64,000 nt of DNA, from NCBI RefSeq assembly GCF_048403405.1, contig NZ_CP183129.1, one strand, 5' to 3'. Source of the DNA: Escherichia coli (GTDB lineage Bacteria; Pseudomonadota; Gammaproteobacteria; Enterobacterales; Enterobacteriaceae). Numbering within the stretch: position 1 is the first letter of the stretch; each line of letters begins with the position of its first letter. The position numbers and the translations under genes are program-made. This document shows positions 2,383-31,789 of this stretch, in pieces. Under the pieces are notes generated by a model. That model searched no databases. It was not told where the DNA came from and saw only the letters and a program-made list of their open reading frames with translations.

Positions 2383-3396
2383 ATGAATACTGAAGCCACG
2401 CACGACCAAAATGAAGCACTTACTACCGGCGCTCGCCTGCGTAATGCTCGCGAACAACTAGGACTTAGTCAGCAGGCCGTTGCCGAGCGACTTTGCCTGA
2501 AGGTTTCCACGGTACGCGACATTGAAGAAGATAAGGCACCCGCCGATCTTGCTTCAACATTCCTGCGCGGATATATCCGCTCTTATGCGCGTCTGGTACA
2601 TATTCCAGAAGAAGAACTGCTGCCAGGGCTGGAAAAGCAGGCTCCACTTCGGGCTGCAAAAGTTGCGCCGATGCAGAGTTTTTCCCTCGGTAAACGCCGC
2701 AAAAAACGCGACGGCTGGCTGATGACCTTCACCTGGCTGGTGTTGTTTGTGGTTATCGGCCTGAGCGGTGCCTGGTGGTGGCAAGACCACAAAGCTCAGC
2801 AGGAAGAGATCACCACTATGGCCGATCAATCTTCGGCGGAATTGAGCAGTAATAGCGAGCAGGGGCAGAGTGTTCCGTTAAATACGTCGACAACTACAGA
2901 CCCGGCTACAACGTCCACGCCGCCAGCGTCTGTGGATACTACCGCAACCAACACGCAAACACCTGCCGTAACTGCGCCAGCACCAGCTGTTGATCCGCAA
3001 CAGAATGCGGTTGTTTCGCCTTCGCAGGCAAATGTTGATACCGCCGCGACCCCGGCACCAACGGCAACAACAACGCCAGATGGTGCTGCGCCGTTGCCAA
3101 CCGATCAGGCTGGCGTGACCACGCCGGCGGCTGATCCGAATGCGCTGGTGATGAACTTTACTGCCGATTGCTGGCTGGAGGTCACTGATGCTACCGGTAA
3201 AAAACTGTTTAGCGGGATGCAGCGTAAAGACGGTAATTTGAATTTAACCGGCCAGGCACCGTATAAACTGAAAATTGGTGCGCCAGCCGCAGTACAGATC
3301 CAGTATCAAGGGAAACCTGTCGATCTGAGTCGTTTTATCAGAACTAACCAGGTTGCGCGTCTGACCCTCAATGCCGAACAATCACCGGCGCAGTAA
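2383..3396 (+). CDS. rodZ: cytoskeleton protein RodZ
   Basis: 337-aa ORF; N-terminal HTH, TM segment, Pro/Thr-rich linker; matches E. coli RodZ N-terminus. Confidence 0.9.
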
Positions 3397-9343: not shown

Positions 9344-9405
9344 TCACTTATCTGGTTTCCCTTTCCACACGGAGAGGGAAACCGAATAACACGCGAGGAG
9401 TATTT

Positions 9406-9621
9406 ATGGCACTCAACTGTCCAACCTGCAAAACCCCTCTCGAACGCAATGGCGAGACTGCCCACTGTGCAACTTGCGACAAAGACTTTACCGTCCAGGC
9501 ACTTTGCCCTGAGTGTCATCAGCCGTTACAAGTGTTAAAAGCTTGTGGTGCTGTGGACTATTTTTGCCAACATGGGCACGGTTTAATATCTAAAAAACGC
9601 GTTGAATTTGTTATTGCTTAA
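9406..9621 (+). CDS. yfgJ: zinc-ribbon protein YfgJ
   Basis: 71-aa ORF with two CxxC pairs (CPTCK...CATCDK, CPECHQ); conserved position after der. Confidence 0.8.
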   Translation: MALNCPTCKTPLERNGETAHCATCDKDFTVQALCPECHQPLQVLKACGAVDYFCQHGHGLISKKRVEFVIA

Positions 9622-9830
9622 TATCATGTGAATATATTGTTTTATCATTTATATTTAATATGTGAATGGTAAAACAATCTGTTATTAGTGGAATAACTAA
9701 TGTAATTGAGTGAAATCACTAATTTAAATAATTAAGAATATATTTATTCTTTATGACATGCCTTTCTGAATAATCAGGGATACAATATTAAAGCTTATTT
9801 TTGACTGTATCATTGTCACAGGGAAAGTGC
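9622..9830 (+). promoter_or_regulatory. strongly AT-rich intergenic/promoter region upstream of sinH-like gene
   Basis: About 200 bp of roughly 75-80% A+T immediately after core gene yfgJ; typical of horizontally acquired, H-NS-type silenced promoters. Confidence 0.4.
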
Positions 9831-12008
9831 ATGCTGCGATGGAAACGCTGTATTATTCTAACATTTATCTCTGGTGCTGCTTTCGCGGCACCAGAGATAA
9901 ATGTTAAGCAAAACGAATCGTTACCTGATTTAGGTAGCCAGGCAGCACAGCAGGATGAACAAACCAACAAGGGTAAATCGCTGAAAGAGCGCGGAGCCGA
10001 TTACGTCATCAACTCCGCCACGCAAGGGTTTGAAAACTTGACCCCTGAGGCGCTGGAATCTCAGGCCAGAAGCTATCTGCAAAGTCAAATCACCTCAACC
10101 GCACAATCTTATATTGAAGACACACTCTCTCCCTACGGTAAGGTCCGTTCGAACCTCTCCATTGGCCAGGGCGGCGATCTGGATGGCAGTTCCATCGATT
10201 ATTTTGTTCCCTGGTACGATAATCAAACCACTGTTTATTTCAGTCAATTTTCTGCGCAGCGAAAAGAAGATCGTACAATCGGGAATATTGGTCTTGGGGT
10301 AAGACATAATTTTAATGAATGGTTATTGGGTGGAAATATATTTTATGATTATGATTTTACCCGAGGACATCGCCGTTTAGGTTTAGGCGGCGAAGCGTGG
10401 ACTGATTATTTAAAATTCTCTGGCAACTATTATCATCCGCTTTCTGACTGGAAAGACTCTGAAGATTTCGACTTTTATGAAGAACGCCCTGCGCGCGGCT
10501 GGGATATTCGTGCCGAAGCCTGGTTACCTTCTTATCCGCAACTGGGAGGCAAAGTTGTCTTCGAGCAATATTACGGCGATGAAGTCGCCCTTTTTGGTAC
10601 GGATAATTTGGAGAAAGATCCCTACGCGGTAACACTTGGACTGAATTATCAACCGGTGCCATTACTAACCGTTGGGGCGGACTATAAAGCGGGGACCGGA
10701 GATAACAGCGATGTCAGCATTAATGCCACTCTTAATTATCAGTTCGGCGTTCCGCTAAAAGATCAATTGGATAGCGATAAAGTGAAAGCGGCTCACTCGT
10801 TGATGGGCAGTCGTCATGATTTTGTTGAGCGTAATAACTTTATTGTTCTGGAATACAAAGAAAAAGATCCGCTTGATGTCACCCTGTGGTTAAAAGCGGA
10901 TGCCACCAACGAGCACCCTGAGTGCGTCATTAAGGACACTCCCGAAGCGGCCGTCGGGCTGGAAAAATGTAAATGGACCATTAACGCGCTTATCAACCAC
11001 CACTACAAAATTGTCGCTGCGTCATGGCAGGCGAAAAACAATGCTGCCCGCACGCTGGTTATGCCGGTTATCAAAGAGAATACCCTGACAGAGGGTAACA
11101 ATAACCACTGGAACCTGGTGCTGCCCGCCTGGCAGTACAGCTCTGACAAAGCCGAACAAGAAAAACTCAATACCTGGCGAGTACGTCTGGCACTGGAAGA
11201 TGAAAAGGGTAACCGACAGAACTCTGGCGTGGTGGAAATCACCGTTCAGCAGGACCGTAAAATAGAGTTGATTGTTAATAACATCGCGAACGTGCCGGAA
11301 GAGAACAACCACAGCCACGAAGCCAGCGCTCAGGCAGATGGCGTTGATGGTGTGGTGATGGATCTCGATGTAACCGACAGCTTTGGCGATAACACCGACC
11401 GCAATGGCGATGCGCTGCCGGAAGATAACCTCACGCCGCAGCTTTACGACGCGCAGGACAAACGAGTGACGTTAACCAACAAGCCTTGCTCGACCGACAA
11501 CCCCTGCGTTTTTATCGCTAAACAAGATAAAGAAAAGGGCACTGTCACCCTCTCCAGTACCTTACCCGGCACCTATCGCTGGAAAGCAAAAGCTGCGCCC
11601 TACGACGACAGTAACTATGTGGATGTCACTTTCCTCGGGGCAGAAATTGGTGGGCTAAATGCATTTATCTATCGTGTGGGGGCAGCTAAACCCAGCAACC
11701 TGATAGGTAAAGATAAAGAACCGCTGCCGCTCAACAACACTTATCGATTTGTTTTGTGGCGTGACAGCAATAAAGACGGTGTCTTCCAGCAGGTCGAAAA
11801 ACTGACTGACGAAGAGATGGCGCAGTACGACTACAAGTGGGAATTTACCGGCAAGAGCATCAATGGTGAAGTGGGTGCACAGGCGAACACTTCCAATGAG
11901 GACATTGTGATTCCGGCCACTAACCGCGAAGCAGCGCAAACCTATGGCGCACAAGCGGGAGATGGCTTGCAGGGATACGGTTTACGCGTGCTGTATACCA
12001 AAAAATAA
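9831..12008 (+). CDS. sinH: intimin/invasin-like inverse autotransporter adhesin (SinH-like)
   Basis: Signal peptide, N-terminal beta-barrel-like region rich in aromatic/Gly beta-strands, C-terminal passenger; start at ATG 9831 (track ORF starts at TTG 9801). Confidence 0.75.
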   Translation: MLRWKRCIILTFISGAAFAAPEINVKQNESLPDLGSQAAQQDEQTNKGKSLKERGADYVINSATQGFENLTPEALESQARSYLQSQITSTAQSYIEDTLSPYGKVRSNLSIGQGGDLDGSSIDYFVPWYDNQTTVYFSQFSAQRKEDRTIGNIGLGVRHNFNEWLLGGNIFYDYDFTRGHRRLGLGGEAWTDYLKFSGNYYHPLSDWKDSEDFDFYEERPARGWDIRAEAWLPSYPQLGGKVVFEQYYGDEVALFGTDNLEKDPYAVTLGLNYQPVPLLTVGADYKAGTGDNSDVSINATLNYQFGVPLKDQLDSDKVKAAHSLMGSRHDFVERNNFIVLEYKEKDPLDVTLWLKADATNEHPECVIKDTPEAAVGLEKCKWTINALINHHYKIVAASWQAKNNAARTLVMPVIKENTLTEGNNNHWNLVLPAWQYSSDKAEQEKLNTWRVRLALEDEKGNRQNSGVVEITVQQDRKIELIVNNIANVPEENNHSHEASAQADGVDGVVMDLDVTDSFGDNTDRNGDALPEDNLTPQLYDAQDKRVTLTNKPCSTDNPCVFIAKQDKEKGTVTLSSTLPGTYRWKAKAAPYDDSNYVDVTFLGAEIGGLNAFIYRVGAAKPSNLIGKDKEPLPLNNTYRFVLWRDSNKDGVFQQVEKLTDEEMAQYDYKWEFTGKSINGEVGAQANTSNEDIVIPATNREAAQTYGAQAGDGLQGYGLRVLYTKK

Positions 12009-13051: not shown

Positions 13052-13116
13052 CAGCATTCCCGCAAGGGAATGCTGTTTCCGCATATTTTGCTTAATCCCG
13101 GATTAAGCAAAATATG
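13052..13116 (+). promoter_or_regulatory. hairpin plus 35-bp perfect palindrome between sinI and ratA
   Basis: cagcattccc-gcaa-gggaatgctg hairpin, then catattttgcttaatc-ccg-gattaagcaaaatatg perfect inverted repeat. Confidence 0.4.
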
Positions 13117-19100: not shown

Positions 19101-21203
19101 GATGTCATTTTCACGGTGATAACCAGCCCGGATTCGCCAAAAGCGAAATACTGGGGCCATATGCCGGAAACGTTTACCAGTTCGGCAGGCGTGACCTTCA
19201 AGCGCCCATTACTGGCAGCGGAAGCGACTACGGGGAGCTCGGTAAACGGTAATAATGAGACATGGTCATATATATATAGTACTCAAAAAGCGACGGCAGA
19301 TTGTTCGCTGGAATATCAACCGCGCCTCAGCGAATTGCAGGGGTTATATGACGATCACCCAAACGGGGCGTTAACGAAAGATCTGGGGTTGCCGATAGCG
19401 TCAGGAAACTGGTGGATTTATGAATTGCTTAACTCCAATGGTAGCTCCTGGTATTACCAGGTCTTTAACCTAAGTACGGGACGAGCATCATCCGCACTCT
19501 CTCCGGTTGCTCTAATGCTCTGCCTGGCACAGCCTCACTCTAAGCCGTCAAGCGTTACCCTGACTTCAATAGCATTTGATGAGACGAGAACCGCAAGTAA
19601 CGGCGGTACACCTTCGGCATCGGCGAAAAAGGGCGAGACAATCCCGTTAGTCGTGACAGTAAAAGACCAAAATGGCAACCTGCTGAGTGGCGAGAGCGTG
19701 ACGCTTCAGCGGGCACAGGCGAAAAGTCGTTCAGGAATTAGGCCCTCATCGTCGGCAGATGATCTTATTGTAGATGTCATCACACCGACAGCGGTCAGCA
19801 TTCCCTTTACTCAGGATACGGCAAAATGGCTTGGCTTTACCGGCAGTGATGGCACAGTGACGTTCAATGTTACGCAAAACGCCACCACCGGCCTGGCAAC
19901 GCCGTTTACGGTCTCGCTTGCACAAGATCCGCAGATCACGTCAAACCTGGACCTGATATTTACCGTGGTCACCAGCCCTGACTCCCTGGATGCCAACTAC
20001 TGGGGCCATATGCCAGAAACGGTGACAGCGGCAAATGGAACCGTCTTTGAACGACCGAAATTGTGGAAGGAACTGCCATCGACCTCCGGGGTAAATAAAA
20101 CCAATAACAATAATGAGGACTGGCCCTATTTTTCGTCAACCACTAAAGCAAATTCCAGCCTCAGCCCTTGTGAGGAAGCCCGGCAACCGTTGCTCAGCGA
20201 TATGAAGTCACTGTATCAACGTTATCCCAATAACACCCTTACGACGGAAACTGGCTGGTCAGTTTATTATTACTGGTGGGCGCAGGATAAGACTACAGAT
20301 GGTAAAAATCAGTCGCTCAATATGAAAGATGGCACAACGACATTGAATGGTAATGCCGCTTATCAGGCGTGTCTGGTGTCTGCGCGCGCGACGGTTTCCA
20401 GCGTCACACTGACCTCAACAGCGTTTGATGCTGACAGCCAGGCGGCGAAAGTGAAAAAAGGCGAAGCCATGCCCGTTACCGTGACGGTGAAAGACAGCGC
20501 CGGGAATACGGTACCGAATGTGGAATTTACTTTGAAACGTGGCGATGCATCGCCGCGTAACGCTGGGGCGACGTTGTATGGTGATGTGGTGGCGATGGAC
20601 GATCTCATCGTTCAGCCGTTATCTGGTTCGGCTGTTACGCTGAGTGAAAGCGGTAATACCATTAGTGGCATGACAGGCGCGGATGGGACGGCAAGTTTTA
20701 CGCTCCGCCAGGATAATACCCCTGGTTATAAAACGCCACTGACGGTTACTCTGGCTAATTACGCTTCCGCGACAGACACGCTGGACGCTATTTTTACGGT
20801 ACCAACCAGCCCGAATGTTTCCTCGGCGCACTTTTGGGGACATATGGCAGACACTGTAGTGGTGAATGGTAAATCGCTACATCGACCGTTGTTAACGACA
20901 GAATTGCCGTCCGGGGCTAATCCCGTATCCTCACCGATTATTAACTACGAAAACTGGGCTTCTGCACATATCATTGATGCCAGTAAATGGGATATTGCAA
21001 GGCAGTGTGGCAGCATAGAAAATGCACCGACATACAATGAATTAGAGTTGTTGCACACTGTTTTTAATTCACTGGGATGGCCGTCTTCACCAAGTTTTCC
21101 TTATTTGTCCTCTCAACAGTGTGGGATGGACGAAGGCACTGGAGCACAGGATTGTAGTATCACGCTAATGAATAAACCGGGTCTGGTGACCTGCTTCCAG
21201 TAA
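13161..21203 (+). CDS. ratA: giant repeat-containing surface protein (RatA-like)
   Basis: 2680-aa uninterrupted ORF with signal peptide and about 9 tandem ~283-aa repeats each carrying FTV(I/V)TSPD...WGHM. Confidence 0.8.
14050..20900 (+). repeat. tandem ~850-bp coding repeats inside ratA-like gene
   Basis: TSPD...WGHM motif recurs at approx. 14.10, 14.91, 15.72, 16.56, 17.41, 18.26, 19.12, 19.97, 20.80 kb. Confidence 0.75.
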
Positions 21204-21235
21204 CCAGCATGGCGCATCTGGCGTGGCCTGGGAGC

Positions 21236-21262
21236 CAGTGCCGGATGCGATGCTGGCGCATC
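21236..21262. repeat. REP-like palindromic element between convergent ratA and xseA
   Basis: gccggatgcgatgctggcgcatcttatgg resembles the enterobacterial REP consensus (GCCGGATGCG...CTTATC). Confidence 0.3.
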
Positions 21263-22669
<1,407 letters not shown>

Positions 22670-31204: not shown

Positions 31205-31789
31205 TTATTGTTTGTTTTTTTCGTTCTGGTTGATGACAAATTCAATGTAACTTTCGATCTTTGCTTTCTCGGTTTCGGGTAACAATGCGTAGCGCGAGCG
31301 GTCATAGTTGATAGTCGCAGGGTCGTGCGGGTGAATCAGTAATTCATAGCCATGACGCCCGAATGCGGATGCAACATTCTCCAGGGTGGAAATGGAAACG
31401 CTGACCTCATTGTTTAACAGGCGGCTGATTGTCACCTGGGCGACGCCGGATGCGCGGTGTAGTTTTCCCTGCGTTGAAAGGTCGCGGCTTTCGCTCATCC
31501 AGCGTTCCAGGTTGTGAGCAGCCAGCTGACCTATATCACTCGGGCCGACAGGCTGAAAACCTTCCTGAGAAAGCGAGCGATCGATATCAAGCCAGTTACG
31601 GGGTTTATTGGCGGCAGCTTCAATTTTTCGCGCAACCTGGTCGCCGATAACCTTCTTGCCAAGAGCCCAGCGGTTTACCAGATTTGCCTGAGTTCCAAGT
31701 TTTTCTGCCATCCGCGTCTGAACACCATTGAATTCACGGTCGATCAAGTCGTTGAGATTTTGCCTGCGGACGTCCTGGATACTTTTCAT
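31205..31789 (-). CDS. prophage repressor candidate, tandem HTH (XRE-type), no LexA-like peptidase domain
   Basis: 194-aa ORF divergent from cro-like gene; two HTH-like segments (TRMAEKLGTQANLVNRWALGKK and ASGVAQVTISRLLNNE); no Ser-Lys autocleavage domain recognisable. Confidence 0.65.
   Translation of the reverse strand: MKSIQDVRRQNLNDLIDREFNGVQTRMAEKLGTQANLVNRWALGKKVIGDQVARKIEAAANKPRNWLDIDRSLSQEGFQPVGPSDIGQLAAHNLERWMSESRDLSTQGKLHRASGVAQVTISRLLNNEVSVSISTLENVASAFGRHGYELLIHPHDPATINYDRSRYALLPETEKAKIESYIEFVINQNEKNKQ

Follow-up and report, generated by a model that had tools for sequence, protein, structure and literature searches.

The element described here lies in a 64,000-nt stretch of Escherichia coli DNA (the window), in the 59-nt spacer between two convergent genes, a giant RatA-like adhesin ORF on the plus strand and xseA, encoding the large subunit of exonuclease VII, on the minus strand (Table 1). 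The ortholog of the adhesin ORF is named 'adhesion domain-containing protein' in RefSeq. On its 5′ side lie an IAT_beta inverse autotransporter and a 325-aa ORF, with der and yfgJ further upstream. The sinH-sinI-ratA ('ila') cluster has been described as occupying the genomic region from xseA to yfgJ and as being related to the Salmonella island CS54 (PMC12928451); the cluster in the window is the ila cluster. The labels ratA and xseA and the convergent order of the two genes, as given in a first-pass annotation of this DNA, are sound, in agreement with the Pfam domains, the strands of the ORFs and the match to the ila cluster.

The same annotation had flagged the string gccggatgcgatgctggcgcatcttatgg as a REP-like element at positions 21236-21262. 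The string is indeed present, as a 29-mer, but it lies at 21240-21268, shifted 4-6 nt to the right. The REP-derived part of it is situated in the spacer except for its last 4 nt (21263-21266), which overlap the xseA stop codon. With this stop codon falling inside the REP-derived stretch, the element is not strictly intergenic.

Table 1. Features at the convergent ends of the adhesin gene and xseA, in window coordinates
Feature	Position	Strand	Remarks
RatA-like giant adhesin ORF, 2680 aa	13161..21203	+	BIg21 and InvE_AD repeats (Pfam); stop TAA at 21201-21203
Left arm, CCAGCATGGCGCATCTGGC	21204..21222	+	Matches the 3′ half of a REP, GTAG orientation
Long imperfect hairpin, 22 pairs, 54 nt	21204..21257	both strands fold	Left arm plus REP head
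Linker, GTGGCCTGGGAGCCAGT, 17 nt	21223..21239		Between two REP heads; outer bases extend the stem, CTGGGA forms the loop
REP remnant, first 27 nt of a 36-nt REP	21240..21266	+ (iREP orientation; GTAG orientation on the xseA-sense strand)	Matches a REP of the K-12 lineage at 27/27 positions
xseA stop codon, TAA	21263..21265	-	From the GGATAAG segment of the REP
xseA, exonuclease VII large subunit, 458 aa	21263..22639	-	Pfam
9-nt deletion junction	21266..21267		CCGG(T/C)CTAC present in the CFT073 and O145 orthologs, absent from the window

Identity and truncation of the REP copy

The current RefSeq record of K-12 has no annotated REP features, and a small reference set was therefore built by pattern, with four canonical REPs pulled from 50 kb of K-12. 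Each of the four was scanned over both strands of the window. For the Z1-type copy, GCCTGATGCGACGCTGGCGCGTCTTATCAGGCCTAC (25,582 windows), the top score of 39 fell on the site at 21240; the best unrelated site reached 22, for a mean of 11.1 and an sd of 2.2. The remnant is 24/27 identical to the K-12 Z1 REP GCCTGATGCGACGCTGGCGCGTCTTAT and 27/27 identical to the first 27 nt of the REP in the loiP-speB BIME of BW25113, GCCGGATGCGATGCTGGCGCATCTTATCCGGCCTAC; loiP and speB are also convergent genes in BW25113, with the BIME between them. The likeness to the REP consensus, which the first-pass annotation had left to be checked against a REP consensus library, is thus far beyond chance over the first 27 nt (39 vs. 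22; 27/27 to the BW25113 REP), and the match is to a genuine REP family.

The orthologous spacer of CFT073 contains a complete 36-nt REP, GCCGGATGCGATGCTGGCGCCTCTTATCCGGTCTAC. Matches to this 36-mer occur in 5425 of 5426 complete E. coli genomes, at a median of 17 places per genome (range 6-28). Its best non-orthologous copies are 94 % identical to it and lie in unannotated sequence, as do most of the matches. Taken by itself, the window provides weak evidence for a REP, and it is comparison with the orthologs and with the K-12 copies that makes the case. Neither the full consensus (3 mismatches) nor the tail CTTATCMGGCCTAC (2 mismatches) matched anywhere in the window, which thus holds no other canonical REP, and a search of Rfam returned sub-threshold matches only, among them naRNA4, a REP325-derived RNA, at 21245-21266 (16 bits, E = 3.2, below the gathering threshold of 59.5 bits). 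The 10-mer at the head of the REP, GCCGGATGCG, occurs at 2 sites in the window for 0.37 expected; the second site, at 31445 inside an ORF, is probably due to chance. The double occurrence of this 10-mer could be taken to mean that the whole REP likeness arose by chance in a GC-rich 3′ UTR, but the copy agrees with a genuine REP at 27/27 positions, and other lineages have the complete REP at the orthologous site; such an origin is vanishingly unlikely. Descent from a REP as an artefact of assembly is likewise implausible, given 528 and about 370 independent genomes with the corresponding alleles.

A second stretch inside xseA, GACGCTGGCGCGT (21426-21475, minus strand), shares 13 nt with the loop region of the Z1 REP and had the second-best scan score (28). 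It is coding sequence that is also conserved in K-12, and its resemblance to a REP was judged to be due to chance.

Alignment with CFT073 and O145 RM8995 shows that the window lacks CCGG(T/C)CTAC between CTTAT and GGATTAG; these 9 nt are also present in wlxctx60. They correspond to the 3′ foot arm of the REP and its CTAC tag (GTAG on the opposite strand). The last bases of the flagged string (GG, then ATTAG) are xseA codons rather than REP sequence, and they abut the REP because the 9-nt deletion joined them to it. In megablast searches, a query with the 9 nt restored found a median of 4 places per genome, vs. 1 for the actual window sequence, and with this restored query no genome did better than the window type at 95.5 %, i.e. 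the 9-nt gap. The deletion appears to be fixed in the window lineage.

E. coli REPs are imperfect palindromes of 30-40 nt with a conserved GTAG at the foot, and both the GTAG and a stem with a mismatch are needed for binding and cleavage by TnpA_REP (Ton-Hoang et al., PMC3333891). The window copy retains the sequence similarity, and the high copy number typical of these repeats is seen with its intact ortholog (the median of 17 places per genome given above). It has no GTAG/CTAC at its foot, and with 27 REP-derived nt left it is no longer a self-folding imperfect palindrome of 30-40 nt: the predicted energy of the REP's own hairpin is -7.1 kcal/mol in the window, vs. -13.9 kcal/mol for the CFT073 ortholog and -20.5 kcal/mol for the K-12 Z1 REP. 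Sequence comparison identifies the window copy as the descendant of a standard 36-nt REP whose loop is of the Z1 type and whose foot is GCCGGAT/ATCCGGC. From the published biochemistry, a copy lacking GTAG and one foot arm would be neither bound nor cut by TnpA_REP (RAYT) and would remain as an immobile relic; the loss of these two parts would make it a dead REP. The earlier annotation was consequently correct as to REP descent and as to the site between the convergent ratA-like gene and xseA, but not as to the integrity of the element, the terminal CCGG(C/T)CTAC being gone.

The alleles also differ in the stop codon of xseA. In CFT073, O145 RM8995 and wlxctx60, the REP's CTAC closes the xseA CDS as given in RefSeq, the stop being the TAG of GTAG, while in the window the CDS closes on the TTA of CTTAT. 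On the xseA sense strand, CFT073 reads AAT CCG TAG ACC GGA TAA G and the window AAT CCA TAA G. Deletion of GTAGACCGG (xseA sense strand) in the window lineage took the TAG stop with it, and the next in-frame TAA, located within the REP, took over. XseA of the window is still 458 aa long after the change from TAG to TAA, with the C-terminus ...NP, and this lack of effect on the protein explains why the deletion was tolerated. The swap provides a tidy example of tolerated REP decay at the end of a gene, with the xseA stop codon supplied by the repeat.

A predicted long hairpin in the spacer

The REP remnant does not stand alone. In the predicted fold its head pairs with a putative half-REP in inverse orientation (21204-21222), and the two together make up a hairpin of 54 nt. 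The left arm agrees with CCAGCAT--CGCATCCGGC at 16/17 positions, with a 2-nt insertion. Compared to the neighbouring REP type, its score of 22 is reached by 0.13 % of background windows; compared to independent K-12 Z1 REPs, the background fraction is about 0.02. With a 2-nt bulge and G-T pairs, the long hairpin escaped a search for inverted repeats; in a minimum free energy scan of all 31,972 overlapping 60-nt windows of the 64 kb, it ranked second (-36.9 kcal/mol, for a mean of -12.25 and an sd of 4.5). An 86-nt fold around the site gave -38.2 and -34.0 kcal/mol on the two strands, with z-scores of -2.6 and -3.1. The stem directly abuts the adhesin stop codon (0 nt) and is separated by 5 nt from that of xseA.

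The most stable 60-nt fold of the window (9849-9908, -37.1 kcal/mol) is a 22-nt inverted repeat of 95 % identity with a 4-nt loop (arms 9859-9880 and 9885-9906). It is located at the other end of the island, within the 5′ coding end of the SinH-like inverse autotransporter gene (signal-peptide codons ...ILTFISGAAFAAPEINV). The spacer between the 325-aa SinI-like ORF and the RatA-like ORF contains an inverted repeat whose 17-nt arms match perfectly around a loop of 1 nt (CATATTTTGCTTAATCC / GGATTAAGCAAAATATG, 13082-13116). Two further inverted repeats, one in the der-yfgJ spacer (9348-9389, 19 nt, 84 %) and an AT-rich one just past the yfgJ stop (9631-9683, 24 nt, 79 %), are likely to be terminator or regulatory hairpins.

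We propose, with a probability of about 0.85, that the spacer between the adhesin gene and xseA is occupied over its whole length by two REPs, a decayed BIME-like pair in which the flagged string forms the right-hand unit. The spacer is best read as the inner head-linker-head portion of such a pair, both outer halves having been lost; the similarity of the left unit to a REP lends modest support to this part of the reading. The absent 5′ half of the left unit would sit where the adhesin gene ends. The last codons of the adhesin gene were considered as a candidate for this missing half and rejected: they match it at about 65 % and are kept as coding sequence in a divergent allele. Inspection of the 17-nt linker by eye revealed no IHF-like WATCAA...TTR motif.

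Spacer alleles and the island junction

The spacer exists in several forms across E. coli. The window type, with the 9-nt deletion, is found in about 346-372 genomes, and the intact-REP type in 528 (CFT073 and 527 others). A third type, that of ST131 and ST648 (about 770 genomes), has an unrelated spacer of 53 nt (1442-1494 of locus L006 and 1444-1496 of locus L007). This spacer contains a small REP-like hairpin, GCCTGATACGCAACGGGCTATCAGG, followed by T7, an arrangement that is terminator-like on the adhesin strand; the 3′ arm of the hairpin holds the TGA stop codon of xseA. In wlxctx60 (2867-2985 of locus L003), the spacer is 119 nt long, with a Z2-type REP, GTAGGCCTGATAAGCGAAGCGCCATCAGGC, and a partial iREP. 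The latter has CCGGCCTAC as its end, on the xseA stop codon. The spacer also includes another palindrome rich in GC, GGCCGCCTACGGCGGCC.

A REP-less type occurs in about 38 genomes, including FDAARGOS_536 and PRO_A-1490. It has kept the left arm and the CTAC, with GGGAG joined to CTACGAA. The ends of the deletion in this allele (3105-3142 of locus L004, 585-622 of locus L008) can be drawn at C^T or at a CTA microhomology, and an extra A in the A-run of xseA results in a 456-aa XseA. The xseA tail of this type is at most 81 % identical to that of any sampled allele. We considered this allele as the footprint of excision by TnpA_REP and did not retain the idea: the C^T end points fit only under one assumed ancestor, and the allele is explained equally well by the CTA microhomology of 3 nt or by recombination with a different xseA allele. 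Excision, slippage and recombination would each be compatible with it.

Together, the alleles form a series (intact REP, REP minus GTAG and foot, REP-less with CTAC, decayed copy and expanded BIME). It is quite improbable that this natural series records processing or excision by TnpA_REP in vivo, or a tuning of exonuclease VII and of the adhesin in different lineages through a stop-proximal hairpin. If the hairpin does affect expression, the output of XseA or of the adhesin would differ between strains according to the allele.

In K-12, xseA and yfgJ overlap by 4 bp and there is no spacer, an arrangement common to 3668 of the 5426 genomes; the yfgJ-xseA intergenic sequence that the first-pass annotation put forward for comparison thus does not exist in K-12. 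The xseA genes of the window and K-12 are about 88-100 % identical over the first 1020 nt, 83 % identical at nt 1021-1200 (in the coding sense) and 68-53 % identical over the last 180 nt. The drop in identity occurs at least 180 nt inside the gene, which places the boundary between core and island-linked sequence within xseA and not at the REP. The earlier statement that the element lies exactly at the junction between island and core is thus borne out by gene order, but not by the sequence boundary, which is at least 180 nt inside xseA, the REP itself overlapping the xseA stop codon. Pattern searches of the window found no REP at the other, yfgJ, end of the island.

These data bear directly on the idea of an intact and active REP marking the junction of island insertion. 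In its favour, the head of the REP is perfectly conserved and sits at the last gene of the island. However, the CTAC/GTAG and the 3′ foot arm are deleted, the REP's own hairpin has merely -7.1 kcal/mol, the boundary of divergence from K-12 lies at least 180 nt inside xseA and the yfgJ end has no REP, making this account very improbable. The spacer behind xseA in strains with the sinH/sinI/ratA (ila) island would accordingly be annotated as REP/BIME debris rather than as the attachment site of the island.

Both genes that flank the island show diverged ends on the island side. Among eight sampled alleles, the last 200 nt of xseA (window 21263-21460; loci L001-L009) have pairwise identities of 61-86 %. 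The rest of xseA is also mosaic. Core genes do not usually have so polymorphic a 3′ end, and the polymorphism is linked to the state of the island. In YfgJ (yfgJ at window 9406-9621), the N-terminal half is strongly unlike that of K-12 and the C-terminal half nearly identical to it. The divergence of xseA and yfgJ indicates that both flanking genes carry diverged island-proximal ends.

Possible roles in RNA and relation to known systems

The classical role of REPs in mRNA is that of a barrier to 3′ exonucleases, by which messages are stabilized. Folding predicts that, in either transcript, the surviving REP head would pair with the inverted half-REP into a stem-loop with 22 pairs and an energy of about -34 to -37 kcal/mol. 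This stem-loop may block 3′-to-5′ exonucleases at the ends of both convergent messages and, being no more than 15 nt from both stop codons, may slow terminating ribosomes and damp translation. According to the summary in PMC12306157 of the work of Liang, Rudd and Deutscher (2015, Mol Cell 58:431), REPs downregulate translation when their distance to a stop codon is below 16 nt. The most likely situation is that of a relic BIME core that, as modelled by folding, would still provide both convergent mRNAs with a 3′ stem-loop. By analogy, this stem-loop may act in mRNA in the way that REP/BIME hairpins do, a proposal to which we give somewhat less than an even chance; the alternative is a neutral relic.

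A strong GC-rich hairpin directly after both stop codons could also be a bidirectional intrinsic terminator for the two convergent genes, and in the unrelated spacer of ST131/ST648, T7 follows a hairpin at the corresponding place. No T-run is found 3′ of the stem on either strand, however, and a scan for terminators gave no site at the hairpin, the one match that it returned (21284-21298, inside xseA) corresponding to 1 found for 1.0 expected by chance; we consider a terminator improbable. With neither a U-tract nor a terminator call at the hairpin, a barrier to exonucleases is the most plausible residual activity of the relic. The match at 21284-21298 (plus strand) consists of the terminator-like ACGCGGTTTACGCGT followed by TTTTGTTACG, antisense within the codons of xseA, and is not conserved in CFT073.

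A more specific proposal would be that the hairpin is a selected stop-proximal device that tunes the translation or mRNA decay of xseA and the adhesin gene, the REP being merely its raw material. The xseA stop codon lies inside a hairpin-forming REP-like element in all examined island-bearing alleles but one (those of CFT073, O145, wlxctx60, ST131/ST648 and the window). Covariation of the left arm with the REP head is seen in O145 (C-G to T-A), where the foot pairs of the REP itself are broken, and changes to the linker in the window lineage add 4 pairs to the stem. Among the four REP-bearing variants, 92 % of the cells are paired, with 2 compensatory pairs. This covariation of the long hairpin is not significant, however, 43 of 500 shuffles reaching it (5 distinct variants tested), and B2 variants carry uncompensated, unpaired substitutions in the left arm; on these two grounds, selection on the hairpin is not demonstrated. 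The REP's own stem showed no covariation among the 5 distinct variants. The device would also be absent from the 68 % of E. coli genomes that have no spacer at all and from the REP-less alleles of about 38 genomes. The latter fold weakly (-18.8 kcal/mol), which indicates that the hairpin is dispensable. Selection for such a device is, in our estimation, unlikely, though less so than a terminator.

Our preferred reading, a decayed BIME-like pair, can be compared with several known systems. The closest is the E. coli REP with a Z1 loop and a Y-type GCCGGAT foot, as in the loiP-speB iREP of K-12/BW25113, which the window copy matches throughout its first 27 nt, and with which it shares a setting in the spacer between convergent genes. 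Unlike the loiP-speB REP, it runs over the xseA stop codon and can no longer fold into a REP hairpin by itself, and unlike the CFT073 and O145 orthologs, which are complete 36-nt REPs with CTAC, it lacks the last 9 nt. The position of the stem, 0 nt and 5 nt after the two stop codons and so within the 15-nt rule as it is summarised in PMC12306157, recalls the stop-proximal REPs that stall ribosomes; the hairpin acting in the window would be the predicted stem of REP head and left arm, however, and not a canonical REP stem. With BIMEs (Bachellier; Ton-Hoang 2012, PMC3333891) the window would share two inverse REP-derived units whose heads face each other across a linker, here of 17 nt. It differs from them in lacking both outer halves, and with them GTAG as well as CTAC, and in having no tandem copies; the linker has no L, S, s, l or r motif or IHF site recognisable by eye, and the left unit is backed by 17 nt only. 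REPINs are REP doublets that form a hairpin (Bertels and Rainey). The two inverted REP-derived arms in one long hairpin would be REPIN-like, but the window has a single decayed copy, with no sign of a replicating unit. The significance of the element goes little beyond annotation: it belongs, as an ordinary decayed copy, to a family of repeats that has been described thoroughly, and it is a kind of feature that is already understood.
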